DNA from: Chiloscyllium plagiosum
Taxonomy: Eukaryota
DNA: 59,773 nucleotides
Assembly: GCF_004010195.1 (NCBI RefSeq)
Contig: NC_057718.1
Coordinates: 73,927,828 to 73,987,600, forward strand
Direction of reading: 5' to 3'
A model generated the notes under the pieces. The model made no database searches, was not told the DNA's origin, and worked only from the letters and a program-made list of their open reading frames with translations. Shown piece after piece: positions 3,052-59,773 of this stretch (the stretch's first letter is position 1; each line of letters opens with the position of its first letter). The position numbers and the translations under genes are program-made.

Positions 3052-4443
3052 TAGAGTCATAGAGATGTTACAACATGGAAACATACCCTTTGGTCCAACT
3101 CATCCATGCCGACCAGTTGTTCCAGCCTAATCTCATTCCATTTGCCTGCACTTGGCCTGTATCCCTCTAAATCCTTCCTATTCATGAACTCATCCAGATG
3201 CCTTTTAAATGTTGCATTTGTACCAGCCTCCACCACTTCCTGTGGCAGCTCATTCCATACACTCACCACCCTCTGCATGAAAACGTTGCTTAGTTCTTGT
3301 GTACATCTTTCCCCTCTCACCCTAAACCCATGCCCCCTCTTTCTGGACTCCCCCACCCCAGGACAAAGACTCTCTCTTTCCCTAATCCATGCCCCTTATG
3401 TTTTTATAAATCTCTAAAAGGTCACCCCTCAGCCTCTGACGCACCAGGAAAACAGCCCCAGCCTATTCCTATAGCTCAAATCCTCCGACCCTGGCAACAT
3501 CCTTGTAAATTTTTTCTCAACCCTTTCATGTTTCACAACATCCTTCTGATAGGAAGGAGATCAGAATTGAATGCAATATTCCAAAAGTGGCCTAACCAGC
3601 GTTCTCTACAGCTGCAACATGACCTTCCAACGCCTATATTCAGTACTCTGGCCAATAAAGGGAAGCATACCAAACGTCGTCTTCACTAACCTCTCTACCT
3701 GCAACTCTACTTCTAAGGAGCTATGAACCTGCACTCCAAAGTCTCTTTGTTTAGCAACACTTATCATTAAGTGTTAAGATTTGCTTTCCCAAAATGCAGC
3801 ACCCCACATTTATCTGAATTAAACTCCATCTGCCACTTCTCAGCCCATTGGTTCATCTGATCAAGATCCTTTATAATCTGAGATAACCTTTTTCGCTATC
3901 CACTACACCTCCAATTTTGGTGTAATCTGCAAGCTTACTAACTATACCTCTTATGCTCACATCCAAATCATTTTATATTAATGATGAAAAGTAGTGGACC
4001 CAGCACCAATCCTTGTCACACTCCACTGGTCACAGGCCTCCAGTCTGAAAAACAACCCTCCACCAGCACCTTCTGTCTTCTACCGTTGAGCCAGTTCTGT
4101 ATCCAAATGTCTAGTTCTTCCCTGTATTCCATGAAATCTAACCTTGCTAACCAGTCTATCATGAGGAACCTTGTTGAACGTCTGACTAAAATCCAGATAG
4201 GACGCATCCACTGCTCTGCCCTCATCAATCCTCTTTGTTACTTCTTCAAAAAACTCAATCAAGTTTGTGAGACATGATTTCCCACGCACAAAGCCATGTT
4301 GACTATCCCTAATCAGTCCTTGCCTTTCCAAATACATGTACATCCTGTCCCTCAGGATTCCCTCCAACAGCTTGCCCATCACCAGCATCAGGCTCACTGG
4401 TCTGTAGTTCCCTGGCTTGTCCTTACCACCTTTCTTAAACAGT
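3052..4443 (-). mobile_element. CR1 LINE, 5'-truncated ORF2 RT region to 3' tail
   Basis: PGNYRPVSL, QHGFVRGKSCLTNLIEFFE, SGV(PQGLVLGPLLF), WNELPQEVVEAG; CTCTATGACTCT tail. Confidence 0.93.
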
Positions 4444-10336: not shown

Positions 10337-12993
10337 ATTGAATGAACTACTGTGTGCTGTGATGCCTTCAGTTGGGTCACAATGAGCCTCAGCACATCAA
10401 GGAAAGTGAAGTCCGAGAAAATCAGTTCTTTATGCTTAATCCCTCTCCAGTCCACATCTCTTTCTCTGCTGTATTCGGACAAGAGGCCATAAGCAAGCAA
10501 AGTGAAAAATCAGTAGAAATCTTGTTTGTAAAGGTTTATTTCAAGAAATTATATTGCAGGAGTCTGAAAAGCTTTCTGGGAAACAAGGAAAAGGACCTAA
10601 GGGAATAATAACCCCTGGTCTGAAAGCTAATGGCAAAACTTTGTAGATGAATTGAAGTTAAATCTTTGATATGACCTTCAGATGATTAGTTGCACCCATT
10701 TTACCAGCTTGACCTTTACTGTCAGTTTGAACTTGTTCTGTATGAAGCTATAAGGCTGGTCTTTCATACCAAGTAAGCAGACGCCCAGTGCCCTAATTTT
10801 CATTATGTTAATTCATTTCACTCTGAGGATTACTGGAAGCTATAGGCAGGATAGAGCATTGAAAATAGTTTTGTGTCACTAAATTGCTGAGGACTGTATG
10901 GGTGGCAGTCGACTGTTTGTGACTGTCTTACAGCTAATGACTTGGACCTTTCGATCTGCCATTGAAAAAGTGACTACCTCCTCTTGTCTGCTGAACCAGG
11001 TCAATGTGCACAGAAATGACAAAACATCTGTAGTACACTGTATAGAATTATTGTGTAGACCAAAGTCATTGCCTTCAGTCGCTGTCACAAACTTTCTTCC
11101 TTAATCATCAGTCCTTTCCCTATTAGTTATCTGAGCCTGAACCAAGTTTCAGATTGTCTATCATGTTTGACCCTGAGATGAAGTTCTGACATAAGTTGCA
11201 CCATTCCACATCTGCAACATTGCCCAACATCTCCATTACCCTGGCACATCTGCATTTACTACCTTTAGACTATTTTAATCCTCTCCTGCCCAGCATCCCA
11301 CATTCTACCTTCTGCACACTTGGTCATCCAGATCTCTGCCCTTGTCCTAACTTGTGCCAAGCCTCATTCACCTGTGATCACTTACCTAAGCCACTTTGTT
11401 AAATTTTTATTTTTAGTTAAAGTTCCTCTATGGCCTCATCCCTCCCTAAAACTGTGATCATCTTTAGTAAGATTTAAAGTACCTGCGCTTCTCCAAATCT
11501 GGTATCTTAGAGTCAAAGCGATCTATAGCACAAAAACTGGTCCTTCGGCCTATTGGGCTTGAGCTCATCAAAACAATCAAGTAACAATCATAGTTCTATG
11601 CTAAGCACTTAGTCCACGCTTTGTATGCCTTGACCTCACAAGTGTACATCTGAATACTTAAATGTAATGGTTTCTGCCTTTTACTGCCCTTCTAGGCAGC
11701 ATGTTCCAGAAATTTCTAATTTAAGTTGTTATATGATTGATTACCATTATTTTAGTTGCCAAGCCTTCAGCTCTACAAACTCTTTGCAAAAACTTCCTTG
11801 TGCCTCTTCTTTTCTGTTCTCATTTTAAGATATTCCACTTTTTCTTTGACCCAAGTGTTTGGCTATCTGCTGTATTGCTCCTTCATGTGCTCAGTGTCAA
11901 AACTCTTTAGTTGTGTTCTTGAGAACCATTTTGGAGATGTTTTACTCCGTTAAAGACACAATTTAAATGCAGTTTATCTTCTCTGTTTTCATAATTTCCA
12001 ATGGATTTGGAATTAGAATAGTTGTTGTTTTTTAACAGACATTGATGTGATAGGTTGAAGGTCTTATCTCTGTGCTGTTGATCTGTGACCTGCAGACCCC
12101 TCCCCATAATAGTACCCTCTTGTGCCTGTAGATCACTTTTTCTGCATAAATGTGCTTTCACTGTACCCGCAGACATTTAGTTCCACATTAGTACCCTCTT
12201 GTCTTTGTGAGTGCCCAGATCCATGTCAAAGCTCCTCACCTGTATCTACAGACTCCTTCACTTCTCACTCTAATTGTACTTTCTGATGCTAGATTTGTGG
12301 AATTTCTTTTACATTAATGCTCTGTCTCACTTCTGCATTATACTTTTCCTGACTATTCCTGCAGGCACCTGTCCCATGCCAAATGTTTTGCTATACATGA
12401 AGCCCATTGCCTCCATTAAGGCTCATCAACGTTTGTCAGTGCTGGCTTTACCTGCATGATGCTTCCACTGTGCCAATAGATTCCAATCTTTCTGTTATTT
12501 TCCTCCTCTCTGTTAATAGTCTCATTAAACCACTGGCTGTGTAGCAATTCAGAAGCAAAATTCCACAGTTACTGCAAATCATAAATTATTAAAAAAAGTG
12601 CTGGAAACACGCAATAGATCAGACTGCATCTGCAAATCGAAAATTCTTAACATTTCACCTTAATGTCCTTTTTTAGCATTTTGTTTGTTTTCAATATATC
12701 TCTATATTAATGTTTTTTCCTGTCTCTGTGGAACATTTCAAAAATGAGCTAAGAAAAAGCCAGGGTGCTATAGACCACTGTTGCTTCATATGAAATTCAC
12801 TTTAAATCTGTGCTCCTCATTGTTTATTCTTTTGATTGTGAACAACATCTCTCTGTCAGCCCACTTGTGATTTTGAAAGTTCCTTTCAAATCTCCCCTCA
12901 GCCACCTTCTCTATAAGGAGAGCAGTCCCACTTACTCAATTTATTCTCATAACTGAAATTTCTCATTCTTGGAGCCATTCTTGTAAATTGTTT

Positions 12994-13295
12994 TGTGCGA
13001 GATAAGCGGCTGTCCGGCCCCATCTCCGGCACTTTTATTTCCCTTCCCAGGAACAAAGACACGGAGGAGTCTGTCCAAGACTTTTCATTCAACTTTGCAT
13101 TTCCTTATATGGATGATGTTGTACAACTGTGGTTAAGGGCGGTCTCTCAACTATCGAGGAAAGCTGTTACAATTGTTTCATTCATAAAAACATGGGGGAG
13201 GTCCAGCAAGAGTTTCGAGTGTCTGCTTGTGTTTACTATAAGGTAGAAAAGACTAAAATGCAGCTAACCGTTTAAAAATTACACTACCCCCTACA
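12994..13295 (-). repeat. ERV 3' LTR (302 bp, internal 193-bp deletion)
   Basis: Matches the 5' LTR apart from loss of the 20465-20657 equivalent, about 4 substitutions and a 1-bp indel; preceded on minus strand by polypurine tract AAGAAAAGACACGGGGGATT (13296-13315). Confidence 0.95.
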
Positions 13296-13329
13296 AATCC
13301 CCCGTGTCTTTTCTTACGGCCTGTAATTT

Positions 13330-15248
13330 TTAAACCGTAAGTTTCTTCAGGGCGTTTAATAACTCCCGAGTTTGTTCAGCAAACTGCCCGTCTCTAATAC
13401 TACCCCCGCTCAAGAGGGATTCACGTTGTTCCATCTCGAGATTCATTCGTTCAACCTGCCCATAGGGAACATCCCTCTTAGTAAGGGCGGTTTCGATCAG
13501 TCGTTGAGTTAATCCCCGGACGCAGGGAATAACGCAACACCCAAGGGCAGTGAGTACCCCTGCCGCCACTATACATGAGACAAGAAAGGGAACGACCACC
13601 CCCGTCCATTTACCGAACCAAGCTTCCAACCAGTCCGTGTGGCCAGAGTCGATGCCCGAGTTTTCGGCCAGTTGGTCCGCCAATGTGGTGAGTCCATCCA
13701 GGGAGCGGGTGATGGACCCATCAGGGGCTGTGTTGTTGGGGATGAAAGTGCAGCACTGAGTGCCTATCATGACACAAACACCCCCCTTCTCTGCCAACAT
13801 CATGTCTAAGGCCAACCTATTTTCCCACGCCATCCTACTGGTGGCGTCCAGTTGTTCTGCTATTCCTTTCACTGCATCCCGGGTATAATTAATGAACCTC
13901 TGCTGATTGTAGTAAATATAATTAATCCAATCCACGTTCTTATTGATGGTCACCCACCAGAACAGTGACGACTCAAAACCCGCCGCTATCTGGTTCCTAG
14001 CCTTGTATTTGTCAGGAACACCCCTGGGGACCCCTATGGATCTAAATATATGTTATCATCGAAAGAGGTCTCCAAAGCTCTCTGTTTTTCCACTGGAACG
14101 GGGTTGCTCTTGTTTTTCGAATGCCAGGGTGAATGGGATGGCCAATTGAACGATTGCACAAGTGCCCGTCCATTTTTGGGGCAGGGTCGGTCGCAGAACC
14201 CTCCCACCACAGTACCACCAGAGGTCTGCCCTAGGCACATGAATGTGGGAGTAATTCCCGCCCCCGGTAGTTTCATTGACCAGCCGAATTGATCCGCTGC
14301 ACTTGTCAAATGTTCCCACATCGTTGTCCCACTGTAGTCCCGTCCGAGAGCCGCAGGCCTGGTGCGTACCCGTTACCCCTGAGAATGATGGCGGGCGGGG
14401 CGCCCCCTCAAACCTGACGGGGGGAAACTTCAAACTCAAGGGTCGACAAGTGGAGTCGTTCCAGGCCTCTCGGTCCTGGTACAGTCTTATCATGCAGTCC
14501 AAGGCTCGTGGGTGTTTCTCCCATCCCAGCGGGAATGGGACCACCTGAGGGTTAGGGCGGGCACTCGTGCATGCGTAGCAATCACTCTTTTTCATGCTCC
14601 TCACAGTATATTTGACCCATTCCATCCAGGCATTCGCCTCCCCGTATCCCTTCTATTTCAAAGGTCTTTTCCAAATCCGTCACCTCAATTATTCTAATCT
14701 TTTCCTGCTCATCGGTGGCCGATGAGCCCCCAGACTCAGCTTCAATGACCGTGATATACGTGCAGCACAGCTGCAACCCCTCCTGTCCTGCCTGGCCCCC
14801 AACCCTAATACCCAGTATTGTTCCATTAAGGCTCGCCCCGTTGTTTCCCAAGTTCTTTATGGTCAGAGCGGATTGCACTGATTCTGCCCACAATCCTGTC
14901 CAGGGGTGATGGGATCACGGACAACTGACACCATAGCCTGGACCCCGGGGGCTGGAGGCCTATTTATGCCTTCCCTACCATGCAATTGTAATACTAACAT
15001 CTGACCCTGGAATCCCCTTTCTCTCTCTAGGTTCCGCTTAGTTTGATACAGTTCACCTTTAGTCCTACAGGGCACCAACCCACATAGGTCTAAGCTAAAT
15101 GTCTGTGTTGGCTTGTTGGCAAGCACGGAGATGGAGAACCACTGACGGTCCTCTGCTTGTTTTTTCCGGAGGCCAAATTGGGTAACACGCACACTATGAC
15201 CCAGCCAAGGATAATGGCATAGCAAGTTAACAATATGATTGACCGCAT
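13330..15248 (-). pseudogene. env: ERV env (gamma-type SU/TM, ERV-Pb1/PABLB-like)
   Basis: Signal peptide MRSIILLTCYAIILGWVIVCV; CYAC (CXXC); LWWYCGG; IGVPRGVPDKYKARNQIAAGFES; ISD ENRLALDMMLAEKGGVC; CX6CC CVMIGTQCC; TM helix; several frameshifts in SU, open from ~14037 to 13330. Confidence 0.95.
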
Positions 15249-15316
15249 TTTGTCGCGACACCTGTAGCCAGAGGGCACAGTTCCTTTAGACTCGCCAAAG
15301 TCCGATTAGTTTGTTC

Positions 15317-18300
15317 TCAGGGTCTCTGTTCCATAGATGCCTTTGTCAGAGAGGTTCGTTCGTCCTCCGTCGGTTGTGGCACTGGTCCCTTGACTCGAGT
15401 GTAGTGTGTCCAGCCCTTTTCGGTAGTCAAAAGTACCAGGAAGGGACTGTCCCAAGTTGGTTCGAGGGTACGTTGCTTCCAGCTTTTAATCAGGACCCAC
15501 TGACCCGGCTTGACGGTGTGCACCGCAAACTCGAGGGGCGGCGTCTGTGCCAAAAGTCCCTGTTGGCGTAAACGAAATAGAGCAGACCCCAGAGCCACCA
15601 CATATTTTTGCACAAACATATCCCGAGACTCGAATAAGGGAGGTTCTCCCTTCGGCCCATGGAACGGGAGGCCAAACAGCATTTCGAAAGGGGAGACGCC
15701 CAAATCCCGCCTTGGCTGGGTGCGAATTTGCAACAGGGCGAGGGGTAGGCATTTGGTAACTCTCTTCAGCCCCTGCCTCCCTTCCCAAGAGATGGGGTAT
15801 TGGTGCACTCTGACGTCGGGGCTCTGGGGCTTTAATTTTACCTCCACAGGTCGAACTGCGAGCCCCCCTCCGGTTCCCTTTGGCGACCCAAACCCTAGGG
15901 TCTATCTCTGTCAATCGGGACTCACTAAGGTATGACATGGTAATGGCTAATTCTTCCTCTTCTCCCACTTCTATTCGTAATCCGAAACGGACTATCAAAT
16001 CCCGTCCCAACAACCCATAGGGAAGGTGCGGGAGGTGAAGGAGTTCCACTTAGAGCTCCTCCTCCTCCAGCCGCAAGGGCTGTGGTTCAAATATTCTTGC
16101 ACTGAAAAGCTGGCGGCCATCGGGTAAGGTCCACTTCCCTTCCCTATCCTTTGTACCCCCCAGAGACGCAAGGAGAGTTTCTTCTTTTTCAGTAAACGTG
16201 GGCACTTCGGTAATTTCGGATATCTGGGGAATCCTTACCAGGCAGTTTATTACTTCCTTCCCCCTCCCGGCCAATTTTGCCTGTTCATCTGCCAATTGGT
16301 TCCCCAGGGTCTCTATTTTATCGTCTTTCTGGTGCCCTTTCACATGTACTACAGCAATCTCTTGTGGCAGCAACAAATCCTCCAAGATCATGGCTACTAG
16401 TTCCTCGTGCACCAACTTCTTTCCTCTGCTATTTATCATTCCCCTTTCCTTCCAGATCTTCCCAAAGGTGTGTACTACCCCAAAGGCATACTTAGAGTCA
16501 GTGTATATTGTCCCGGCTATTCCCTTTAAATTCCTCAAAGCCCGGTGCAAGGCGTACAATTCGCACGTTTGTGCGGGCCAGGCATTCGGTAGCCGTCCAC
16601 TTTCCACTAATTCCCAACCAGTCTCACTAATGACTGCATAACCGTTGTGTCTTTTCCCATCTATCACTCGAGAGGACCCGTCAATGTACCACCGCCTTCC
16701 TGCATGTAAGGGGGTGTCCCTCAGATCTTCCCTCACTTTACTCTGGTACTCTATTATGTCTGAACAGCAGTGTTCCAGTTCCTCCTCCCCTTCCCCTTTC
16801 CAAAGGAAGTCCGCCGGGTTCTGGCAGCCCCCGACTTCTATTCGGAGGTCCTCTCGGTCTAACAGTATGGCTTCATATTTCAGAATTCTCGAATCAGTCA
16901 GCCACCTTCCAGCCTTCTGATTCAGGATAGTTCTAACCTGGTGGGGAGTAGTGACTGTCAAGGGGGCCCCGAAAGTCAACTTCCTGCTTTCCTCTACCAG
17001 CTTTGCCGTGGCTGCCACCGCTTGGACACACTCCGGCCACCCTCGGGAGACTTGTTCCAGAATTCTTGACAGGAAAGCCACGGGCTTCCTTTTTCCCCCC
17101 CAATCCTGGGTCAATACTCCAAGAGCGGTTCCCTTCCTGGAGTTTACAAAGAGACGAAATGTCTTACTAAAATCCGGCAAGCTTAAAACAGGTGCGGTCA
17201 TCAATTTTTCTTTTAGTATTCCAATTACCTTTTTCTCCTCCTCCTCCCATTTTATTCTGTTGGGTGCCTCCTCAATGAGTTTTAGGTCCAAGTCTTTAGT
17301 AAGGGGGGCATAGTCGTCTATCCATAACCGACAATAGGCTAAGAGTCCCAAGAACTTCCGCAACTCCCTCTTGGTTGTTGGGAGGCCTAGTTCGATTATT
17401 GCCCGCACTCTTTCCGGACTTATTCGTTTCTGTTCCTGACTTATCAAGTGTCCCAGGTACTTAACCTCTTTCTCGACATATTGGAGCTTCTTCTGACTCA
17501 CTCTTAACCCCTTCTCAGCTAGGTAATTTAAGAGGGCATTAGTCCCAAGTAGGACGTCCTCCTCCGTGGGTCCGGATAAAAGGAGATCGTCCACGTATTG
17601 TTTAAGCTTAAGGGCCGGGGACAAGGTTAGTCCTTCCAATAATTGTTCCAGAATCTGCCCGAACAGAGTCGGGGACTCAGTGAATCCTTGGGGGAGCACG
17701 GTCCACCTGTACTGCTGTTTTCTGCCAGTATCAGGATCCTCCCATTCGAAAGCAAAAAGATCCCTACTGTCCTTGTCCAGGGGACACGCCCAGAAGGCAT
17801 CCTTTAAGTCTATAACACTAAACCAGCCGTGGTCCGGGGGTATTCGCCCCAGAATAGTGTATGGGTTCGGTACCACAGGGTGCCGTACTTGGACAATTTT
17901 ATTTATTTCCCTTAGGTCTTGGACCATTCGGTAGCTCCCGTCCGACTTCCGGACTGGCAGGATGGGGGAATTGTATCGTGACATACAGGGCTCTAACAAT
18001 CCATCTTTTACTGGGTCTTCCATAACTGTCTTCAGGCCCTGCCTCCCTTCCCAAGAGATGGGGTATTGGCGCACTCTGACGTCGGGGCTCTGGGGCTTTA
18101 ATTTTACCTCCACAGGTCGAATTGCGAGTCCCCCCGGTTCCCTTTGGCGACCCAAACCCTAGGGTCTATCTCTGTCAATCGGGACTCACTAAGGTATGAC
18201 ATGGTAATGGCTAATTCTTCCTCTTCCACTTCTATTCGTAATCCGAAACGGACTATCAAATCCCGTCCCAACAACCCATAGGGAAGATGGGGGAGGTGAA

Positions 18301-18556
18301 GGAGTTCCACCTGGAGCTCCTTCTCCTCCAGCCGCAAGGGTTGTGGTTCGAATATTTTCGCACTAAAAACCCCACCCTTAACTCCTGAAATGTTTAATGT
18401 TTTAGCTTGGAAGCCAACCCCCCTAGGATGGAGGGGAATTGGGGACCTGCCGGCGCCTGTGTCAACTAAGAAGGTAACATCTTGTCTAAATGGGCCCACC
18501 CGTAAATTTACCAGGGGTTCTTGGTAGGCCCGTGTTCCGATCCTCCCCTGACTTCC
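15317..18556 (-). pseudogene. pol: ERV pro-pol (protease, RT, RNase H, integrase C-terminal remnant)
   Basis: FLVDTGA protease; LPQG and YVDD RT motifs; RNase H DGSS/TDSKYAF/HVKGHQ/GNQLAD; frameshift in a G-run ~18130-18135; IN HHCC and DDE region replaced by 15757-16108; IN C-terminus LPLALLQIRTQPR...SPFEMLFG...WDSPF retained. Confidence 0.95.
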
Positions 18557-19616
18557 CTAATCCATTTGTTCACGCTCCATTTCAGACATCCCATCCCTTT
18601 TAAACTCGGGACAATCCCTTTTGAAGTGTCCCAGTTTCCCGCAATGGTAACATCCGGCCATCGGAGGCCGCTCAATTCCATAAGATCCTCCTCTCTCACT
18701 TCTGCCCCGTCTCGCTTCTCTCCCCCTCCAACTTTTCTTCGACATTCCTCTTTCCACCCCATAACCTCCCTCCCCCATTCCGGTGGACTTACAAGCATCC
18801 CGTACGGCTGCCACCATCATTTTTGTCTTATGTTTCACCCTTATTACATCCCTCTGAACGTACACCTTCTGTGCTTCCCGTAATAATTCTGCAACATCCT
18901 TTTCAGCCCAATCCTCCACTTTCTGTAATTTCTTCTGAATGTCAGGCCTTGACTTAGTCACAAAGTGCACCTTAAGCATGCCCTTGCCTATTTCCCCATC
19001 GGGGTCTAAACCTGAATACTTTCGCATGGACTCCCGCAAACGGTCTAAAAACTCACTCGGGGATTCATCCTTTTTCTGTCCAACTTCGAATGCTTTCGCT
19101 AAATTCCGCTGTTTGGGCACGCAGGTTTGGATCCCCCTGATTATAAGGCTTCTGAGATCTGTCATATTGGCCCGTCCCCCCGCGTCGTTATGATCCCACC
19201 GTGGGTCCTCTAAGGGGTATTTCTGCTCTCCACGCTGAGGGCCGTCCTGATGCTCCCTATCCCAAATGGCCATTGCACTATTCCGGATCATAACAATTTC
19301 ATCGTAATTAAATAGTATTCTCATCATGGCCTGCAATTAGGCTCTTGTGTATATACTGGGCCCCAGAAATTGATCCAGTTGTATTCCCACACTGATGGCG
19401 TCGTCCAGTAGACGGGGTAGTTCATTACGGAGTTGCCGGATATCCCCAGAATTTAAAGGTTGTACTACGAACCCAGTCCGTTCGTTCCCAAACGGCACCT
19501 CTCGTAAGGGGTTCAGCTGTTCAATATTGTCACTCCTACCAGCTCTCAATTCCTCTTCTCGACCTTTCCGCATCTCGAGTCGGACTGATTTCCTAGTGCC
19601 TGGGGTGGGTCCTGCG
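18557..19616 (-). pseudogene. gag: ERV gag (CA-NC part; N-terminus lost in N gap)
   Basis: Major homology region QKKDESPSEFLDRLRESMRKY, single CCHC knuckle CYHCGKLGHFKRDC; one in-frame premature TAA at 19337-19339; ends at TAG 18557-18559. Confidence 0.93.
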
Positions 19617-19908
19617 NNNNNNNNNNNNNNNNNNNNNNNNNNNNNNNNNNNNNNNNNNNNNNNNNNNNNNNNNNNNNNNNNNNNNNNNNNNNNNNNNNNN
19701 NNNNNNNNNNNNNNNNNNNNNNNNNNNNNNNNNNNNNNNNNNNNNNNNNNNNNNNNNNNNNNNNNNNNNNNNNNNNNNNNNNNNNNNNNNNNNNNNNNNN
19801 NNNNNNNNNNNNNNNNNNNNNNNNNNNNNNNNNNNNNNNNNNNNNNNNNNNNNNNNNNNNNNNNNNNNNNNNNNNNNNNNNNNNNNNNNNNNNNNNNNNN
19901 NNNNNNNN
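19617..19908. other. Assembly gap (292 N)
   Basis: Run of N between ERV leader repeats and gag. Confidence 0.99.
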
Positions 19909-20060
19909 GTCCTGGTCTTAGACGCCCAAAGCGTTTTCACAGATGACCGTCAAACCACAATTTCCCGTGGTTTATCTTCGGTCCTGGTCTTAAACGCCTA
20001 AGACGTTTTCACAGATGACCGTCAAAACCACGTGGCCAACAAGGAAGAACAAAAAAAATC

Positions 20061-20070
20061 TCTTACCTTG
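20061..20070 (-). promoter_or_regulatory. Probable ERV splice donor for env mRNA
   Basis: Minus strand CAAG|GTAAGA in the leader between PBS and gag. Confidence 0.6.
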
Positions 20071-20337
20071 TTCCGTGCACGGAGTTGTCTGGCCTTTTTA
20101 AATGTGTGTACCCTCGTGTATAGTCACTAACCGGTCGTCCCAACACTCGTCCGTGTGTTCCTTTTCCAGGATTCAAAATTATTTTTAAATAAGCCGGGTC
20201 ACATCCTCTCTTGGCCGACGGCCGACGGACCAAGCTGATCAGTGAGAAGTATAAATATATACTAGACGCGTCTTTGTTGTGATCAGGCTTGATCCGTGAG
20301 CCGAAGAGACTGCCCCCCCCCCGGCAATAATTATTTC

Positions 20338-20355
20338 ATCCCGGACGAGCCCCCA
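20338..20355 (-). promoter_or_regulatory. ERV primer binding site, tRNA-Pro
   Basis: Minus strand TGGGGGCTCGTCCGGGAT, the canonical 18-nt tRNA-Pro PBS (as in MLV), 2 nt from the LTR end. Confidence 0.97.
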
Positions 20356-20357
20356 AT

Positions 20358-20853
20358 TGTGCGAGCTAAGCGGCTGTCCGGCCCCATCTCCGGCACTTTT
20401 ATTTCCCTTCCCAGGAACAAAGACACGGAGGAGTCTGTCCAAGACTTTTTCATTCAACTTTGCAAAGTCGGGTGTTGTTCCCGTAGGTACACACACAAAC
20501 ATAGTAATCTCCACGCATTATATACACGTATATGTGGGCTGGGTCGCCTACTGCTGTCTTGACCAATGAGTGCTAGGGTTCCCCACTGTTTTCCTTATTT
20601 GGTGCCTGCGATTATTTTGTTATTCACTTGGCCAATTAGTGTTCAAGCTCCCCGTTCTTTCCTTATATGGATGATGTTGTACAACTGTGGTTAAGGGCGG
20701 TCTCTCAACTATCGAGGAAAGCTGTTACAATTGTTTCATTCATAAAAACATGGGGGAGGTCCGGCAACAGTTTCGAGTGTCTGCTTGTGTTTACTATAAG
20801 GTAGAAAAGACTAAAATGCAGCTAACCGTTTAAAAATTACACTACCCCTTACA
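20358..20853 (-). repeat. ERV 5' LTR (496 bp)
   Basis: Direct repeat of 12994-13295; minus-strand TATATAA (~20518-20524), CCAAT-type motifs, AATAAA (20398-20403); followed by PBS. Confidence 0.95.
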
Positions 20854-22309
20854 GTTTCGCACACACTCAAGTATGTTCACATCTCTGCTGTAATGTGGCA
20901 CCCATAGCTGTGCACAGCGTTCCAGCTGAGGTCTAACACATGTCTTGTACAAGTCCCATATAGCTTCCTGCTCTGATACTCTGTCTTTATTAATAAAGTT
21001 GAGAATTCCAGTTTGACTGTTCTTTTCATCTGTCCTGCCATCTTCAATGATCAGTGCCCATTTACACCTGGGGCTCTCTGTTCGTGCACCCACTTTAGAA
21101 TTGTACCCCTTATTTTGTATTGTCTTTCAATATTCTTCCAACCAAATTCATCAGCTCACACATGTGTATTGAACCTCATCTGCCACCTGTCTGGGCACAC
21201 CAGCTCCTTTGGATCTATTAAGAGTTAATGAACGTAACTCGCATGAAGGTTTTGCTCAAATATTTTGTTTCTGAAATGATTTCAGATGTTGCTTTTTCTA
21301 TCCAAACATGACTGCATTCCCTCTCGACCAGTGTATACATGATGCATGACCAAATGGTACATGACCAAATACGATCCATAATTTGGATCCTAACATGCGC
21401 AATTCAGGTTGTGAATTGTGCCTTAATGAGCAACAGTACATCAGTGGTCAAGCGCCTCTTCTATGCATCATACGCATCTTTTGCTTTATGCCATTCCCAT
21501 TTCAATTTTTTTTTCTTTGGGGACATGAAAAAAAAACACTGGCTGGTAAGATTGGGGAGAATCCCAAGATATTGTATAAGTGTATTAAAAGTAACAGAAT
21601 AACCAGAGAAAGAATAGATCCATTAGGGACCAAGGGGACAATTTTTGCATGGATCTGGAGGACATTAGTAGGGTGTTCAATGCGTACTATACATCTCTTT
21701 CATGGGACTTTGTTGAAAGTCTTTTGAAATTAATCTCATCCACTGTCTCTGCCTGATCAACTCTTAATTACATCTTCAGAACAATTGTGTAGATTTGTCA
21801 AGTGTAATTTCCTTTTTGTAAATCCATGCTGACTGTGTCTAATTCTACCACTGTTTTCTAAGTGTTCTGCTATAAAATCCTTGATAATGGACTTCAGTGT
21901 TTTCCCCGCTACTGATTTCTAACTTGGTGTTCTATAATTCCCTTTTTTCTCTTGCTCCCTTTTTAAATTGTGGGCTTACATTAGCTACCTTCAAATCTGT
22001 AGGAACTGATCCAGAGTCAAAAGATGACTACCAGGATGTTGCTTAGGGTGGAGCAGTTTAGCTATGAAAAGGGACTGGATAAAGTCAGTTGTTTACATTG
22101 GAGCTGATTAAGGAGCATGGACAGGGTGGATAGGAAGCAACTGTTTCCCTTCGTTGAAGGCAATTGAAGATTTTATTATTAGAACTTAAATTTCACCAGC
22201 TGCAATAGTGGGATTTGATTCGCTCTCCCAGAGGTTTACCTAGGCCTCTAGATTACTAGTACTCTGACATTACTACACTGCCACCAACACCCCTGAGTGC
22301 ACACTTGAG

Positions 22310-25039: not shown

Positions 25040-26597
25040 TTGTGAGAAGATTTGTAGCTCAGGTGCTCGTTGCTGTGGTTCTGTTCGCCGAGCTGGAAGT
25101 TAAACGTTTCGTCCCCTGTCTAGGTGACATCCTCAGTGCTTGGGAGCCTCCTGTGAAGCACTTTTCTATGGTGTTTCCTCCGGTATTTATAGTGGCCTGT
25201 CCCTGCCGCTTCCGGTTGTCAGTTTCAGCTGTCCGCTGTAGTGGCCGGTATATTGGGTCCAGGTCTGTGTGTTTGTTGATGGAGTTTGTGGATGAGTGCC
25301 AAGCTTCTAGGAATTCCCTGGCTGTTCTTTGTTTCGCTTGCCCTATAATGGTAGTGTTGTCCCAGTCAAATTCATGTTGCTTGTCGTCTGCATACACGTA
25401 TCTGACCCAGAGTTTGGGTTGAATTTCTGACCCAGAGTTTGGGTTGAATTTCTGACCCAGAGTTTGGGTTGAATTTCTGACCCAGAGTTTGGGTTGAATT
25501 TCTGACCCAGAGTTTGGGTTGAATTTCTGACCCAGAGTTTGGGTTGAATTTCTGACCCAGAGTTTGGGTTGAATTTCTGACCCAGAGTTTGGGTTGAATT
25601 TCTGACCCAGAGTTTGGGTTGAATTTCTGACCCAGAGTTTGGGTTGAATTTCTGACCCAGAGTTTGGGTTGAATTTCTGACCCAGAGTTTGGGTTGAATT
25701 TCTGACCCAGAGTTTGGGTTGAATTTCTGACCCAGAGTTTGGGTTGAATTTGTGGTAAGATTGTTTGTTCTAACCTTTGCATTACTGCTTCTGCTATGAG
25801 TCCCGGTGAGCCAATGCTTGTTCCGTTGATTTGTTCGTATATCTGGTTGTTGAATGTGAAGTGTGTTGTGAGGCACAAGTTCAGTAGTTTAAGTATGCCG
25901 TCTTTGTTGATGGGTTCAACGTCCTGTTGTCTGTTATGTCTGTTCAGCAGGTTGGCTATTGTTTCTCTGGCTAGGGCTTTGTCAATAGAGGTGAACAGTG
26001 CCGTTACGTCGAATGAGACCATGGTTTCTTCCTTGTCTATGTGTATATTTCTGATGATGTCCAAGAATTCCTGTGTTGATTGTAGAGAGTGTCTGGATCC
26101 GCTGACCAGGTGTTTCAGTTTCTGCTGTAGTTCTTTGGCCAGTTTGTATGATGGTGTCCCTGGCAGTGGAGGAGGTTTACCAGGATGTTGCCTGGTATGA
26201 AAGGAAAATCGTATGAGGAAAGACTGAGGCACTGTTTTTTCGCCAGTTTGTGTGATGGTGTCCCTGGTGGTGATACTATGGGTCTGAGTGGGATGTCTGG
26301 TTTGTGCACTTTAGGTAGTCCATAGAATCTGGGGGTATTGTTGCTTTCAGGTTCATTCTTTGTACGTCCGACCTGGTTATCTGTCCGTTTTTTTGTAGGT
26401 TCCTCAGTGTGTTGTTTATCCTATTGGTGAGCTGTGGGGTGGGGTCAAACTCCCTCTTTTGGTAGGTGTTGGTATCTGCAAATAGTTGTTGTGCTTTTTG
26501 GATGTACTCTGCTTTGTCCAGGATGACCGTCATTCTGCCTTTGTCTGCTGGTAGTATGATTTATGTTCTTATCGTTTCTTAGTGATTTTAGTGATTT
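25040..26597 (-). mobile_element. Penelope-like element (second family), 5'-truncated and internally deleted, nested in a CR1
   Basis: RT motifs [44 protein letters not shown]; endonuclease C-terminus HEFDWDNTTII...REFLEAWHS; TAGGAAGGGT TSD (25030-25039, 26598-26607). Confidence 0.92.
25401..25750. repeat. Minisatellite, 14 perfect copies of 25-bp TCTGACCCAGAGTTTGGGTTGAATT
   Basis: Counted directly; no spacers; unit is Penelope RT coding sequence (IQPKLWVR). Confidence 0.97.
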
Positions 26598-29975: not shown

Positions 29976-32900
29976 AAGTAAATATCTAGACACAAATGCT
30001 CAACTTCTTAGAGTCTTGAAATATTATTTCTAATGCTGATACTTGTGTTTAAAATGTTGTCCCGTTACCACCCTTGACAGTAGTCATTGGCTTGGCACAG
30101 AGGAAAGGAGTCAAATCTATTATTAACTAACTGCTATCTTTAATTAGTTTAGTAAAAACAGACATTGAATTCATACCGTTTGGTTAAGAGGTTAATATAC
30201 ATGCAATTCATGCAAGGCTAAAATCTGTGTGCAAACCTACTAGGTTTCTATTACACTTCCTGAACAAAGAACTTAAAGACTAATACTCAGGAATGGCTCG
30301 TGCTGGCCAGGCAATTTCTCATGTCCTCTGTTATCTCCAAGCTTCCAAGCACAGTACCTTCAACTTCGCAAAGGTTGATATCTGGAGTTTTTTGCTGTCA
30401 GCAAGCCCAAAATCCTTAATTTTTATCCTTTTTCCTTCCCGAACTGTGGTGTCTTATTCTTCATTAGCTTCTTGCCATACTTGCCATGGGGCTCAGATAA
30501 CTTCAGTTCACAAGATGCTGTTTTGATGTGTGAGCAGCATTTGGCCAACATCCACACACCACCCTCCCCAATCCTCAGATCCAAAGACATTTATCTTAGG
30601 ATCATCATTTTCCTTTCGTTCTGCTAACCATTCATGGGATCGCCAACGACCCCCAGTGGGTGTGTGTTTTATATAAAAGAGGTCTACCTACTTAATTAAA
30701 AAGAGAGAACAACTGACTACCCAATTCACACAAACCCTTCTCTAACAACAATGGTCATTTCTGTTTTGTTAGAGCTTCAATTTCTATCTTTCCGATAATT
30801 TCATTTTTCCACCTTCTGAGCTGATACATTTTGAGTATTACAGTTACCAATTGTTATGACACTGGGTAAACCTTCCTGCTTAATTTAAAATCAGCAACAC
30901 AGAAAAGATTTATTTCGTGTAGTCATCTGCAAAAATTCGAGTGGTTGTGGAAAATCTTCGATGGACTTCGTCTTTGCGTTCATGGGGTCAACCTTCCGTA
31001 AAGTAAAAATTAACAACTTTATTTCTTAAAGTGTAACAGAGAATAATGAATTAACCACTATTTACAATTCCTTCCTCTAACCTAGCTTTTACCTTCCCTT
31101 CTATAATACTGGTCTGATAAAATTCCCAATTAAGATTTACAAAACCACACTTCTTATCTCAAAACCAGGCAGCTTTCATTCTCTTATACGGATCTTCCTA
31201 TGTCTTTTCTTCTTAGGAATTTCTTTGTCACGGGTTACTGATCGAAAAACTAATTTTAAGAGAGCTATTATTCAAGAAGTTTGTTTACAGGCTGGGCTTG
31301 GCAGTTCTCCTCTCAATCTCCCCTGGCCTTATACCCCCCCCAGAATGTCAACTGACTAAATTCAATCTGGATTGGAGTTTGATATTTCTTGGGGTATAAT
31401 TTAAATTGATTGGCCGAATTCAAATTTGTTTTTGTCTCCAGGCAATGAGCTAATAGAGTTGTTCGAGCAAGTGTTACATTGATACCTTATTGAGAACACT
31501 TGGTGCTGTGTCTGGTAATTCTGCTGCTTTAAACTCTCTTAAATTACACTCGCATCTTCTTAACACCTTCCCCCTTAAGAAAAAATGAATCATAATAATG
31601 AAAAGATGGCTTCATTTTTTTCTCTACTTTATAAACACCTAACCCTAACATACAGATAACTTTAATATAAGTTTACCTTGACTTCTTCCCATATACCTGT
31701 GTGTGTGTGTATAAATATATAAAAAACATTAAATAAAGGCAAATCTCGTTTAAAGTCTCTGTTAAATCCGCAATACAGCATCAGCGATTACATTCATCCA
31801 ACCGCAACATGTATGAGTTGTAAATTAAAAGTCTGTAACATAAGACTCCAACAGAATAGTCGCATTTTCTTATCTTTAAACTGTTCTAAGAATATAAGCA
31901 GATTGTGGTCAGTGTACAGAACGGTCTCTGCACCATTGTTTGTGACATATACATTAAAATGCTGTAAGGCCAGTACAAAACTCAATAGTTCCTTTTCGAT
32001 TGTGGAGTATTTCCTCTGGTGGATGTTGATCATCTTTGAAAAGTAACCAACTGGCAGTTCAATCCCATCCTCATCTTCCTGTGGGAGTACAGCTCCAATG
32101 CCAATGTCACTAGCATCAATTACGACTTTAAAATGTTTTGAAACGTTTGGTGTAGCTAAAACTGCTTTGGTGGTTAATATCAATTTTGAAATGGTCGAAT
32201 GCCACCTGGCATTGTTCAGTCCACCGAAATCTTGTGGTGTTCTTCAGCAAATCGGTTAACGGTGCCACTACACTGTTGACGTTTGAAGAAACATTCGAAT
32301 TGAATGTTTAAAGAGAATCGAAGCATCTCTTTCTTCAAGATTGGTTGTGGAAATTCCCCAATGGCCTTCGTCTTTGCGTTCTGTGGGGTCAACCTTCTGT
32401 GATTGATGTTATGTCCCAAGAATGTCACCGCTGCTTTCGCGAATTCAGTTTTATTTAAGTATATCACCAATATTGCTTCTCGGAGTCTTTCAAAGAGCTC
32501 TGTCAACTGTTCCATGTGATCTTTCCAGGATTAACTAAAGATCACTACTTCGTCCAAATAGTCTGCACAGTTTGTTAAACCAGCCCCAACTCTGTTCATG
32601 AGTGTTTGGAATGTGACGGTTGCGTTCTTCACTCCAAAGGGCATCACTTTAAACTGATATAGCCCACTCCCAAGTTGGACTTAATGCGTCCAAAATTTAT
32701 TTCACCGTCTCTGATAAAGGTACTTGCCAGTAACCATGCATTAAGTTCAACTTGGTGATGTAACTGCTTGTCCGACTTTCTTGATACCGTCCTCCAATCT
32801 CGGAATTGGATATGAGTCTGATTTTGTAACGGTGTTGACCTTCCAATAATCCATGCACAATCATGGAGTCCAGTCTGGTTTGGGAACTAAGACGATCGGT

Positions 32901-33386
32901 GAACTCCACTCGCTGTGGCTTGTTTTGATGATGCTCTCGTCAAGCATGGCGTCCACCTCCATCTGGACCTATCTGGCTTTGAAAAGATTAAGCCAACAGG
33001 GGTGTTGGTTTATTGGAACAGTATTTCCCACATCTACTTCGTATACAATAGCATTAGTCTTCCCCATCTGATTCTTACATATGTCCTTTTACTGTAATAA
33101 CAAATCTTTCAACTGCATTCTACGCTACTGAGACAGATAGCTTACTAATCTATCCCATTTCTCGAGGACTACTTCATTTTAAAATCTATTTTGAGGGACC
33201 TCAAAATCTATATCATCTGGATTTGATTCCTCACTCTGCAAGGCAGTAACTAATACCTGTTTCTCCAGTTCTCTCTCTCTCTAGAGTAATATGGTTTCGA
33301 CATGTTCACATGACACATCCGATAGATTTTTTTTCTATCTGGCATCTTTACTAGATAGTTCACCTGACTCAACCTTTTCTCAATTT

Positions 33387-33763
33387 TCTCAATACATATA
33401 AGATTATGAAAGAATTGGACACTCTGGCAGCAGGAAACATGTTTCTGCTGATGGGTGAGTGCCGAACCAGAGGACACAGCTTAAAAATACGGGGTAGACC
33501 ATTTAGGACAGAGATGAGGAGAAACCTCTTCACCCAGAGAGTGGTGGCTGTGTGGAATGCTCTGCCCCAGAGGGCAGTGGAGGCCCAGTCTCTGGGTTCA
33601 TTTAAGGAAGAGTTGGATAGAGCTCTCAAAGATAGTGGAATCAAGGGTTATGGAGATAAGGCAGGAAGAGGATACTGATTAGGAATGATCAGCCATGATC
33701 ATATTGAATGGCGGTGCAGGCTCGAAGGGCAGAATGGCCTACTCCTGCACCTATTGTCTATTG
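33387..33763 (+). mobile_element. CR1 LINE 3' end nested in the Gmr1-like integrase
   Basis: RTRGHSLKIRG...FTQRVVAVWNALP ORF2 C-terminus, (CTATTGT)n tail, TCAATTT TSD. Confidence 0.9.
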
Positions 33764-34712
33764 TCAATTTGATAGGAACCACTAAACCTGGCTTTGAAGG
33801 GATCTCCTATCATTGGTAACAGTACTAACACATTATCCCCTTGGGCGAATGTCTGAGTCTCGGAGAGCTTTTATATGCCACCTGTTTCATTCTACATTGT
33901 GGTTAAAAACAATGACTGCAGATGCTGGAATGTGCTGGATGCACATTCTACATTGTGCCCTCTTTAGATGCTGTTTAGCTAACTCACCTGCTTTATTTAG
34001 TCTCTCCCTCACCTCCAATACTTTGGTCCTGTAAATGTTTTCTTTAATTAATTTCAAAGGGTCTCTCACTTCATGACAGAATATTAACTTGAAGGGAGTA
34101 AACTGAGTAGATTCATTTGGGGCATCTCTAATGGCAAACAATACAAATGGAATACCTTTTATCCCAATTATTCTGGTAACCTTGACAGTATGGTCTCAAC
34201 ATGGTCTTCAAGGTCTGATGCCACCGTTCAAAAGTTCCCTTGGATTCAGGATGATAAGAACTGGATTTAAAATGCTGTATACCTAAGCTATTCATAGCCT
34301 CCTTAAACAGCCTAGCTGTAAAATTTGACCCTTGGTCTGACTGAATCTCTCTGGGTAGCCCATACCATGTGGAAAAAAAGCTACTAACCCCTCTACTAGC
34401 CTTTTTGCCTTGATTCTCCGAAATGGATATGCCTCCGGAAATCTGGTAGACACATCCATTATGGTTAACAAGTACTGGTTTTCGGTAGGGGACCTACATA
34501 ACCAATTATAAACCCGAGTGAAAGGTTCTTTAAATGCAGGAATTGGCAACAAAGGTGCTGGTTTTATTAAGCCTGTGGCTTAGCTACCATTTGGCATGTT
34601 TGACACGTATGGCAAAAGTTAACCAATTCTTGTGCCTTACAGGCCCATACAAATGTTTTTGTACCTTAGCCTGAGTCTTTTGTACAGGTAGTTCATGTGC
34701 TACCTGTAACAC

Positions 34713-35180
34713 ATACAAGGATGTTGCCAGGGTTGGAGGATCTGAGCTAAAGGGAGAGGCTGAACAGGCTGGGTCTGATTTCCCTGGAGCGTCGGAGGCT
34801 GAGGGGTGACCTTAGAGGTTTACAAAATTATGAGGGGCATGGATAGGATAAATAGACAAGTCTTTTCCCTGGGGTCGGGGAGTCCAGAGCTAGAGGGCTT
34901 AGGTTTAGGGTAGAGGGGAAAGATATAAAAGAGGCCTAAGGGGCAACCTTTTCATGCAGAGGGTGGTGCTTGTATGGAATGAGCTGCCAGAGGATGTGGT
35001 GGAGGCTAGTACAATTGCAAAATTTAAGAGGCATTTGGATGGGTATATGAATAGGAAGGGTTTGGAGGGATATGGGTCGGGTGCTGACAGGTGGACTAGA
35101 TTGGGTTGGGATATCTGGTCGGCATGTACGGGTTGGACCGAAGGGTCTGTTTCCATGCTGTACATCTCTATGACTCTATG
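34713..35180 (+). mobile_element. CR1 LINE 3' end nested in the Gmr1-like element
   Basis: QRVVLVWNELPEDVVEA...FKRHLD, (CTCTATGA)n tail, ACAC flanks. Confidence 0.9.
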
Positions 35181-36487
35181 ACACCCTGTCTGTATGCTAC
35201 AGGCAACACAATCTGGTGCACTTTGGCCCATTTCTCCTCTGCAATAATCTGCTGTGGTCTCCATTTCCATCAGAGGATTCTGTCTTTCAGATAATAAACC
35301 TCAGGGATATTCTCTGCCTCCTTTTTGGAGTAGACATCCACATAAATATCTTTTATCGTCTTGCCTTGCTGTTGTAAGTCTCTTAGCCTTTCAGCACTAA
35401 GGTTGACCCTCTGCACCATTACATCAAACAGGGTATATGATAACTGAACCTCAACTCCTTCATCTTTCTCTTTACTTTTCACTTTGTACTGTGACTTTAT
35501 AATGGTTACCACACAGTCTGGGAAAATACCCAGGATTTTTGTATTTTAACTCCTCAGTTTCTTGGTCTTCCTTGGGCTTCTCCACAACAAGGGGTGTCAC
35601 TCCCACCTTGGATCCTGCCAAATCGTTCCCAAGAACGAACTGAATTCCTGGAACTGACACTCTGTCAATCACTCCCACTGTAACTTCCCCAGTCTTGACT
35701 TGGCACTCCAACCTCATCTTACATAGGGGAATGCTAAATTTCTGTCCATCTATCCCATAAATTACCACACTCTCTGGTAACAGATCAGAAAGAGTGCATT
35801 CCTTACTATCAGCGACTGGTTAGATCCTGTATCTCTCAAAATTATAACTTGTCCTTCTCGCCCTGTTCTTTCTGATTTAAACTTTAGATTAGATTAGATT
35901 ACTTAGTGTGGAGACAAGCCCTTCAGCCCAACAAGTCCACACCGACCCGCAACCCACTCAGACCCACCCACAGAGGCAAATTATTTTTAGAGATCAGATA
36001 CTCGCTCCATACCCAGCCCCTGCCTCGGCTGTGCACTCTCCTGCAACTTCTCAGCTCTTCTTAGGGTCTCCTTTACTACCTTCTCTAATGCCTCTGGCTG
36101 AGCTTCTTTTACCACATCTTTTCCCACAGTGCCTTTCTTTAATGACCAGGAATGTGCATTTAAGAATCCCACCTTCTGGCGGTGCAAATACCTTTTCCCA
36201 GTGCCTTCTCAAACCACTGACACTGTAATTTTCTGTGTTCCACTCCATTTCAGTGAAAACACCTGAGGCCTTTCACCTCCTTTTCCACCCTCTTGGGCTG
36301 CTTTTTTTATCCTGTGGTAAAATCTTACCAGTGCTCTCTAATGTAGTGTAGGATCTCCCCTTCTCCCAACTTATATCCCCCATAGGACGAAATTCTGGCT
36401 GGCAGCTTGTCTTATGCACCAGCATGTTCCCATCTGCTAATTCTGCTGCCCTTTTCACTTCCTGAACTTTCTGTTTCTCCACGTGAT

Positions 36488-36806
36488 TGATTAGATTAGA
36501 CTACCTACAGTATGGAAACAGGCCCTTCGGTCCAACAAGTCCACACCGACCCTCTGAAGAGCAACACACCCAGACCCAGTCCCCTACCCTATATTTACCC
36601 CTGACTAATATACCCAACACTATGGACAATTTAGCATGGGCAATTTAGTATGGCCACTTCACCTGACCTGCACATCTTTGGATTGTGGGAGGAAACCCAC
36701 GCAGACATGGGGAGAATGTGCAAACTCCACACAAGGTGGGAATCGAACCCAGGACCCTGGCACTGTGAGGCAACAGTGTTAACCACTGAGCTACCATGCT
36801 GCCCAG
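36488..36806 (-). mobile_element. HE1-type tRNA-derived SINE nested in Gmr1-like gag (a truncated copy also at ~35885-35968)
   Basis: Minus strand head GGGCAGCATGGTAGCTCAGTGGTTAACACTG...GGGTTCGATTCC with pol III A/B boxes, central GTGTGGAGTTTGCACATTCTCCCC, (TCTAA)n tail. Confidence 0.85.
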
Positions 36807-39982: not shown

Positions 39983-40190
39983 TTAGTCATAGAGATGTAC
40001 AGCATGGAAACAGACCCTTTGGTACAACCCGTCCATGCCGACCAGATATCCCAACCCAATCTAGTCCCACCTGCCAGCACCCGGCCCATATCCCTCCAAA
40101 CCATTCCTATTCATATACCCATCCAAATGCCTTTTAAATGTTGCAATTGTACCAGCCTCTACCACTTCCTCTGGCAGCTCATTCCATCCA
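39983..40190 (-). mobile_element. CR1 LINE 3' tail
   Basis: WNELPEEVVEAGTIATFKRHLDGYMNR. Confidence 0.88.
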
Positions 40191-59111: not shown

Positions 59112-59773
59112 AGTTTGGGTGAAGATTTGTAGCTCGGGTGCTCGTTGTTGTGGTTCTATTCGCCGAGCTGGAAATCTTTTTTGCAGACGTTTCGTCCCCT
59201 GTCTAGGTGACATCCTCAGTGCTTGGGAGCCTCCTGTGAAGCGCTTCTGTTGTGAATATCCACAACATCCATGAACATCAACTAGCCATGAAATGCCACG
59301 ACCAGCTATCCTTAGTAGCCCCACACACAGACGACAAGCAACATGAATTCGACTGGGACAACACTACCATTATAGGGCAAGCCAAACAAAGAACAGCCAG
59401 GGAATTCCTAGAAGCATGGCACTCATCCACAAACTCCATCAACAAACACATCGACCTGGACCCAATATACCGGCCACTACAGCGGACAACTGAAACTGAC
59501 AACCGGAAGCGGCAGGGACAGGCCACTATAAATGCCGGAGGAAACACCACAGAAGCGCTTCACACTTTGTACACCTACGGGCGAGAGATGCTAAGACAAG
59601 CCAGGAAATGGGAATCCTGCGCTAACCGCCTCAGCGCCACATACGAACAACTCCGGTTCCTGCATGAATGCCGAAAGAATCGAATCCTTCCACCATGTGT
59701 CAGATACAGACCGCCAGTCAACAATCCACAAGCCAGAGACACAGCCAGACAGAACGGATTCAGGATGATCCAG
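59112..59773 (+). mobile_element. Penelope-like element 5' end (inverted pLTR, endonuclease C-terminus, ORF N-terminus), runs off window
   Basis: ~59112-59250 inverted pLTR of the same family as 25040-25160; 59250-59563 HEFDWDNTTIIGQAKQRTAREFLEAWHS; 59566-end open frame LYTYGREMLRQARKWES...LRFLHECRKNRILPPC. Confidence 0.85.
59183..59222 (-). ncRNA. Minimal hammerhead ribozyme motif in Penelope pLTR
   Basis: Minus strand GCA-CTGAGGA-T-GTCACCT-AGAC-AGGGGAC-GAAAC-GTC-TGC: both conserved core boxes, stem II, palindromic ACGT stem III, GUC cleavage triplet, 3-bp stem I. Confidence 0.75.

Follow-up and report, generated by a model that had tools for sequence, protein, structure and literature searches.

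A 59,773-nt stretch of the genome of the bamboo shark Chiloscyllium plagiosum (contig NC_057718.1 of assembly GCF_004010195.1, positions 73,927,828 to 73,987,600, forward strand; hereafter, the window) contains, at positions 12994-20853 on the minus strand, a genuine provirus, with exactly the boundaries assigned to it in an initial annotation made from the sequence. The element is a defective germ-line class I gamma-like provirus of the HERV-IP/HERV-ADP/ChiRV1 clade, and adds one more member to a clade that is known, and has been reported before from this group of hosts. Its presence in a shark is best explained by an old cross-class transmission, most simply a single amniote-to-shark jump followed by diversification in elasmobranchs, a reading to which we assign a probability of roughly 0.6.

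Paired long terminal repeats (LTRs) with TG...CA ends, a target-site duplication, a primer-binding site, a polypurine tract and the gag-pro-pol-env gene order, as in an integrated provirus, were all observed. The order of Pfam matches was capsid, one zinc knuckle, protease, reverse transcriptase (RT), RNase H, integrase C-terminal module and gamma-type env. These are the products of ordinary retroviral integration, carried out by integrase after tRNA-Pro-primed reverse transcription. In the 5' to 3' direction of the provirus, the features are as follows.

20854..20857, plus strand: target-site duplication on the 5'-LTR side, GTTT on the plus strand (the chance of a 4-nt match is about 0.005)
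20358..20853, minus strand: 5' LTR of 496 nt with TG...CA ends, containing CCAAT-like, TATA-like and AATAAA elements
20338..20355, minus strand: primer-binding site of the tRNA-Pro type, starting 2 nt past the LTR
19909..20337, minus strand: leader, holding an imperfect 50-nt duplication (19909-19958 versus 19981-20031, 90% identity)
19617..19908, no strand: assembly gap of 292 N at the 5' end of gag, spanning its expected start
18557..19616, minus strand: gag, with capsid p30 (PF02093, E 1e-26), one CCHC knuckle (PF00098) and a premature in-frame stop at 19337-19339
18104..18556, minus strand: protease (PF00077, E 7e-10), in a frame shared with gag and not with RT
16101..18134, minus strand: RT with YVDD, connection and RNase H, open over about 678 codons (PF00078, PF00075)
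15757..16108, minus strand: 352-nt copy of the protease/RT junction (source 18023-18369), occupying the place of the integrase zinc finger and core
15317..15757, minus strand: C-terminal remainder of integrase, a module of the MLVIN_C or GPY/F type (PF18697)
13330..15248, minus strand: env of the ERVPb1/HERV-IP/ADP type (PF00429), in pieces, with four frame switches in the surface subunit (SU)
13298..13315, minus strand: polypurine tract, read directly in the sequence, preceding the 3' LTR
12994..13295, minus strand: 3' LTR, 302 nt, TG...CA, lacking an internal stretch of 193 nt that the 5' LTR has
12990..12993, plus strand: target-site duplication on the 3'-LTR side, GTTT on the plus strand

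The 18-nt primer-binding site is the same as an 18-mer typed P (Pro, AGG) in supplements 1 and 6 of Vargiu et al. 2016 (PMC4724089). The two LTRs are identical at 298 of 302 aligned positions (98.7%), with four substitutions and two indels, in agreement with the earlier figure of about 99% over the shared length. The sequence missing from the 3' LTR includes the TATA-like box, and a 1-nt indel is also seen relative to the 5' LTR. GC content is 50% in the provirus and 40% in the flanks.

The initial annotation had described the provirus as near-complete. This description does not hold: in integrase, other sequence stands in for the zinc finger and core; none of gag, protease/RT and env is intact; and the 3' LTR is shortened. 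At least eight lesions were counted over 12994-20853. The terminal TAG of gag is in frame with the protease, and read-through of a TAG between gag and protease, as in murine leukemia virus (MLV), is predicted. The long open RT-RNase H region was found as annotated (about 678 codons at 18134-16101, for an announced 680), and sits inside a 702-codon stop-to-stop frame. In env, the four frame switches are seen by comparison with a sibling protein, P0139; the ectodomain of the transmembrane subunit (TM), the immunosuppressive domain (ISD), the motif CX6CC and the membrane anchor are open. A Pfam scan of nine frames gave no match to dUTPase or G-patch, and the SU piece had no match to solved structures. 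We conclude that the provirus is a dead copy, without sign of function, and cannot now replicate by itself. Proteins named Chiloscyllium punctatum match it with 96-97% identity. P0139 bears that name and belongs to a cluster of 33 member sequences; its env frame is open to residue 548 and continues into an unrelated tail. It lacks a membrane anchor and so is not a complete env either, and the tail could be a gene-model artefact or mark a truncated, secreted env. Against solved structures, P0139 matched only the TM cores of syncytins and similar proteins, the receptor-binding domain of EnvP(b)1 remaining unmatched.

A second sibling, P0040 (also named Chiloscyllium punctatum; 97% identity over 367 residues), defines what was lost from integrase: the zinc finger and catalytic core, about 194 residues corresponding to P0040 residues 368-561, are missing from the window copy, and one residue of its GPY/F module is altered. 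The 352-nt insert found in their place is 94% identical to 18023-18369, with 15 differences at 347 aligned positions versus 4 at 302 in the LTR pair (Fisher p 0.033). Nine of the 15 differences are synonymous, versus 28% expected (p 0.009; the frame boundary is approximate). An origin of the insert by local tandem duplication was rejected, since the insert is too divergent and rich in synonymous changes. The pattern fits a piece from another replicating family member, or a chimeric assembly. In the former case, which we favor, the insert would have been taken from a second family member via template switching between co-packaged genomes, and a copy whose integrase was replaced in this way would probably have integrated with proteins supplied in trans.

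To place Pol, the best 120 annotated-protein matches were collected for each of two queries. Those to RT-RNase H comprised 93 birds, 3 squamates, 1 turtle, 1 crocodilian, 3 elasmobranchs and 19 unnamed proteins; those to the RT core comprised 46 birds, 4 turtles, 3 catshark proteins, 1 squamate, 1 mammal, MLV and 64 unnamed or doubtfully named proteins. No named teleost or amphibian was present among these 120 + 120 matches. The RT and env motifs quoted in the initial annotation are present in the window, and the RT motif, DAFWACPL, occurs twice in the consensus file of Vargiu supplement 3, in the HERVIP and HERVADP sections only. Seven unnamed proteins, matched by motif to the published HERVIP (5) or HERVADP (2) consensus, served as HERV-IP/ADP references. 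RT-core identity to the provirus was 66-70% for catshark, 66% for HERV-ADP-type, 60-64% for HERV-IP-type and 47-66% for bird sequences (134 rows of birds), compared with 50% for MLV and 38% for stickleback. The best bird and snake rows reached 65-66%, so that the special closeness to the human lineage proposed earlier is not seen: identity to the HERV-IP/ADP-type references (60-66%) is no higher than to catshark, bird or snake elements. An unnamed 297-residue protein, P0381, which extends from the protease active-site motif through the RT YVDD motif, is 86% identical to the provirus over 182 RT residues and was its sister in every tree.

Pol trees were built from 323 rows of at least 160 residues, which were reduced through a 198-row FastTree to two manually chosen sets, one of 64 rows (LG+G4) and one of 34 (mixture model). 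The provirus grouped with HERV-IP/ADP-type, bird, snake, shark, skate and ray sequences with support of 100/100 (64 rows) and 100/97 (34 rows); this clade has a long stem, and a gecko element is its next relative. A split between elasmobranch plus epsilon-like Pol on one side and amniote Pol on the other, as expected from host co-divergence, was rejected by the approximately unbiased (AU) test (p-AU 0.00055). Identity as an epsilon-like fish endogenous retrovirus (ERV) was rejected by the same value and by the low RT identity to stickleback; the epsilon-like outgroup consisted of one named stickleback row and unnamed rows and did not include walleye dermal sarcoma virus. Judged by these comparisons, Pol belongs to the HERV-IP/HERV-ADP-type clade and not to the epsilon-like fish elements, as the initial annotation had proposed.

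The env evidence supplies a direction. The TM piece matched full-length envs; in sharks, these were 76-79% identical in Mustelus, 75-96% in Chiloscyllium, 77% in Heterodontus and 77-80% in Scyliorhinus; outside sharks, galliform birds and a gull gave 71-79%, bilby 72%, three primate rows 70-71%, frogs 66-70% and teleosts 49-72%. The primate rows are 664-666 residues long, the length reported for ERVPb1 in the available part of PMC8123466, and because of this length and their monophyly were taken as ERVPb1. Across a 346-residue span of C-terminal SU and TM, P0139 is 57-59% identical to primate ERVPb1 and 61-66% identical to birds. Identity between shark env lineages (62-75%) is equal to that between sharks and birds. 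Env trees contained 53 rows (52 of the 120 matches listed, plus the window) or 28 rows (mixture model, without P0238 and most teleosts). Both trees gave the topology (bilby,(primates,(birds,sharks))), with all four nodes starred in both trees and models. Nine shark rows from four genera formed one clade (96/85, 98/94) with two sub-lineages, each found in Chiloscyllium and Mustelus. An amniote-only env clade was rejected, with p-AU of 0.045 (47 named rows) and 0.0048 (28 rows). In the 53-row tree, the root of the env family lies among the envs of teleosts and frogs.

By its alignment and tree position, the env is of the ERVPb1/HERV-IP/ADP type. The earlier assignment to ERV-Pb1 stands in so far as the env groups with ERVPb1; the env motif then offered as a signature against fish viruses fails, as it is shared by Astyanax, other teleosts and frogs. 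This sharing, together with a stickleback protein (P0167) in which an epsilon-like Pol is fused to an env of the broad ERVPb1 family, means that the groups cannot be told apart by this motif taken alone; the tree does separate them. P0167 is also an example of env exchange between Pol lineages. A PABL-type env, suggested by the automated name of one match, was rejected, since the PABL ISD in Vargiu supplement 2 differs. The SU/TM site in the sub-lineage of the window env (P0139, P0121 and window positions 14040-14100) is a minimal R-x-x-R, and is R-x-K-R in the other shark lineage and in birds; the N-terminal SU of the same sub-lineage (P0139, P0121 and the window) is likewise built differently. 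Proteins of retroviral RT and env were also encountered under bacterial names (P0446, P0224; Klebsiella pneumoniae, Aeromonas salmonicida), which are probably host contamination in public records.

The LTR distance is 0.0134 (95% range 0.0036-0.034). With the mutation rate measured directly in the epaulette shark, 7e-10 per generation according to the available part of PMC10587355, this corresponds to 9.5 million generations (2.6-24). At 2.2e-10 per year, the rate assumed by Han 2015 (PMC4422223, available sections), the age would be 30 million years (8-77), and at 1e-9 per year, 7 (2-17) million years. The observed/expected CpG ratio is 0.66 in the provirus and 0.28 in the flanks. Since CpG decay is small, and the LTRs of a neighbouring element are just 79% identical, we conclude that the copy, which carries at least eight lesions, is young relative to the shark genome but is not in itself a sign of present activity. 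The word "young" in the initial annotation is to be taken as relative. A "recently active" lineage had also been proposed; at the slow mutation rate of sharks, an LTR divergence of 1.3% means millions of generations, and this proposal is not upheld. Wang and Han (2023) use identical LTRs and insertion polymorphism as the marks of an actively invading ERV; with four substitutions and two indels, the provirus does not show the first of these. In a search of sequencing runs, 20 of the 24 rows listed contained part of the stretch, 3 of them at least half of its words, with 9 studies and three organism codes represented and no RNA data set listed; these rows do not enter as evidence here.

Neither the Pol tree nor the env tree follows host phylogeny. 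Grouping of RT with epsilon-like elements and host-congruent Pol and env trees, the two outcomes named beforehand as contradicting a cross-class transmission, were both looked for and both rejected; such a transmission is therefore supported. The alternative without any transmission is co-divergence with jawed vertebrates over about 450 million years, in which paralogy would be hidden and bony fishes and amphibians would have lost the clade. It would account for members in sharks, skate and ray, and elasmobranch Pol monophyly inside the clade is unrejected (p-AU 0.355), but it conflicts with the rejection of host-congruent trees for both proteins, with shark-bird env identities as high as those between shark lineages, and with the lack of any named teleost or amphibian Pol among the best 240 matches. 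We consider it improbable. A transmission in the opposite direction, with elasmobranchs as an old reservoir from which marsupial, primate, bird and snake lineages arose by several sea-to-land jumps, draws on the position of elasmobranch Pol at three places in the clade, with mutual identities (59-70%) like those to amniote rows, and on the root of the env family among teleosts and frogs. However, the shark env rows are one clade nested within bilby, primate and bird rows, so that three jumps from unsampled shark lineages would be needed in place of one, and the outgroups of the Pol clade are amniote elements; such a reservoir seems unlikely. The strong form of the initial annotation, in which a lineage that is active now jumped recently from a bird or mammal to a shark, was suggested by the nearly identical LTRs, the little CpG decay and the long open RT-RNase H frame. 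It is very improbable, given that the closest relatives are shark elements (Mustelus env, 75-79%) and the unnamed P0381, not amniote ones; that the shark env clade spans four genera; that the copy carries its lesions and its age of millions of generations; and that 46 orthologous ERV groups are shared within Chiloscyllium (Chen et al., bioRxiv 2021.11.23.469661, available sections). Finally, the draft state of the assembly, the N gap within the element and the internal duplication might raise the suspicion of contaminating amniote DNA or of a wholly misassembled repeat, which the target duplication, the exact LTR ends, the close match to Chiloscyllium punctatum-named proteins and the relatives in four shark genera make hardly credible.

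According to the favored reading, an amniote-to-shark jump, the lineage would have reached elasmobranchs once, and would then have diversified and entered the germ lines of sharks and rays anew, the window copy being one of the later integrations; related envs are found in four shark genera and related Pol in skate and ray. Birds are the nearest sampled env relatives and not necessarily the donor, because reptiles contributed no env row and env passes from one lineage to another. Several points weigh against this reading. Its direction is given by env alone, and env recombines between lineages, so that the env tree may differ from the virus tree. The AU rejection obtained with 47 rows is marginal, and the bootstrap behind it is not fully settled. 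A tenth shark env, P0238, has a long branch and groups with teleost envs; it is the row absent from the 28-row tree. Monophyly of the mammal envs (p 0.063) is unrejected, as is a carcharhiniform clade congruent with the hosts (p 0.057), so that horizontal spread among sharks is at most a possibility. No reptile env was present among the best 120 annotated-protein matches. Within its clade, Pol is star-like, and the elasmobranch rows, which need three changes on the tree, do not come out as monophyletic, although their monophyly is unrejected as noted above. Sampling was confined to the best 120 annotated-protein matches per search, with no usable host name for 19/120 and 64/120 Pol matches, and the HERV-IP/ADP reference rows are unnamed proteins labelled through a consensus motif match. 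The rearrangement in integrase may be an assembly chimera. We also hold as a tentative possibility that a HERV-IP/ADP-type virus crossed once from a bird or other sauropsid to sharks and spread horizontally across shark and ray orders, as several co-circulating, recombining lineages that went on entering germ lines into recent times.

The closest described system is the HERVIPADP supergroup (HERV-IP and HERV-ADP, to which chicken ChiRV1 is related; Vargiu et al. 2016, PMC4724089), with which the provirus shares the RT motif and the starred Pol clade. In that work, the primer-binding site is P or I in HERVIP and F/H in HERVADP, and the ISD is of the wENRiALD/wENRLALD type; the window has the Pro primer-binding site, one zinc knuckle, a GPY/F-type integrase end and the ISD wENRLALD. 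The human groups differ in their LTR divergence of 10-19%, compared with 1.3% here, and the present host is a shark and the LTR its own. HERV-IP and HERV-ADP as groups are defined by 80% DNA identity to consensus and by LTR10/LTR71; the RT protein of the provirus is 60-66% identical, and on this measure it is not placed in either group. HERVI in Vargiu's sense belongs to the HERVERI supergroup, in which Pol and env group with HERVE/HERV3; the consensus sections that contain the RT motif are those of HERVIP and HERVADP only, and the trees contained no HERVERI row. ERVPb1, or EnvP(b)1 (PMC8123466 and PMC7683403, available sections), is of the same env family, and the CXXC, ISD and CX6CC elements are present in the window env; ERVPb1 is a co-opted primate host gene, whereas the window env is a broken proviral gene to which bird envs are nearer. 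The epsilon-like fish ERVs and the elephant-shark CmiERVs (Han 2015; clade Mu of Xu et al. 2018; available sections of both) are also class I, and some teleost epsilon-like elements carry a related env, but RT identity to the named teleost element is low, as given above.

A lemon-shark ERV is, like the provirus, a HERV-related shark element, known there from a single sequence, as opposed to the full proviral frame with LTRs and env seen here. It is reportedly to surveys in J Virol in 1997-98 that the original reports go back. Han 2015 (PMC4422223, available part) describes it as a close relative of a human ERV that is regarded as cross-transmitted, and the available part of Xu et al. 2018 (PMC6001957) calls the gamma-like clade amniote-only and interclass switches frequent. 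Chen et al. describe, from six cartilaginous fish, ERVs whose env is of the gamma type, among them ERV-GA.a-Cpu and ERV-GA.a-Ara, in which Cpu and Ara would be species codes. These are of the same class I and general env type, but the available sections draw no link to HERV-IP/ADP or birds and contain no test of direction; the supplements may already contain the window family or locus. The available portions of PMC10435555, PMC7683403, PMC11089739 and PMC4977317 add nothing on the HERV-IP/ADP-type clade in sharks. A literature search, thin on subscription journals, found no paper that places shark HERV-IP/ADP-type envs sister to bird envs.

Elsewhere in the window, an older, degraded LTR retrotransposon lies at 31001-38457 on the minus strand, with terminal repeats about 79% identical. 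It retains a remnant of RNase H at 31794-32243 (PF17917) and another of integrase core at 34128-34493 (PF00665), and is Gypsy-like by domain type. A perfect 25-nt tandem array of 14 copies (100% matches) at 25401-25751 overlaps one arm of a 227-nt, 96% inverted repeat, whose other arm is at 59328-59554. The flanks also contain numerous dispersed repeats of 65-90% identity (for example, 3059-4412, 39988-40187 and 56237-57619), consistent with remnants of short and long interspersed elements.

The broad idea of such a transmission has been in print for decades, and what is worth following is the pattern at the level of the family, a broad elasmobranch branch nested among amniote viruses. What had been, with the lemon-shark element, a lone exception to the amniote-only gamma-like clade of Xu et al. 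2018 becomes a lineage, with a full proviral frame, four shark genera, a skate and a ray. The env tree gives this lineage a testable direction, from amniote to shark with birds nearest, and ties the co-opted primate ERVPb1 to viruses whose family passed the boundary between land and sea. If a single crossing from a sauropsid followed by horizontal spread in sharks and rays were true, the gamma-like "amniote-only" viruses would have a large, possibly circulating, elasmobranch branch that is sister to bird viruses.

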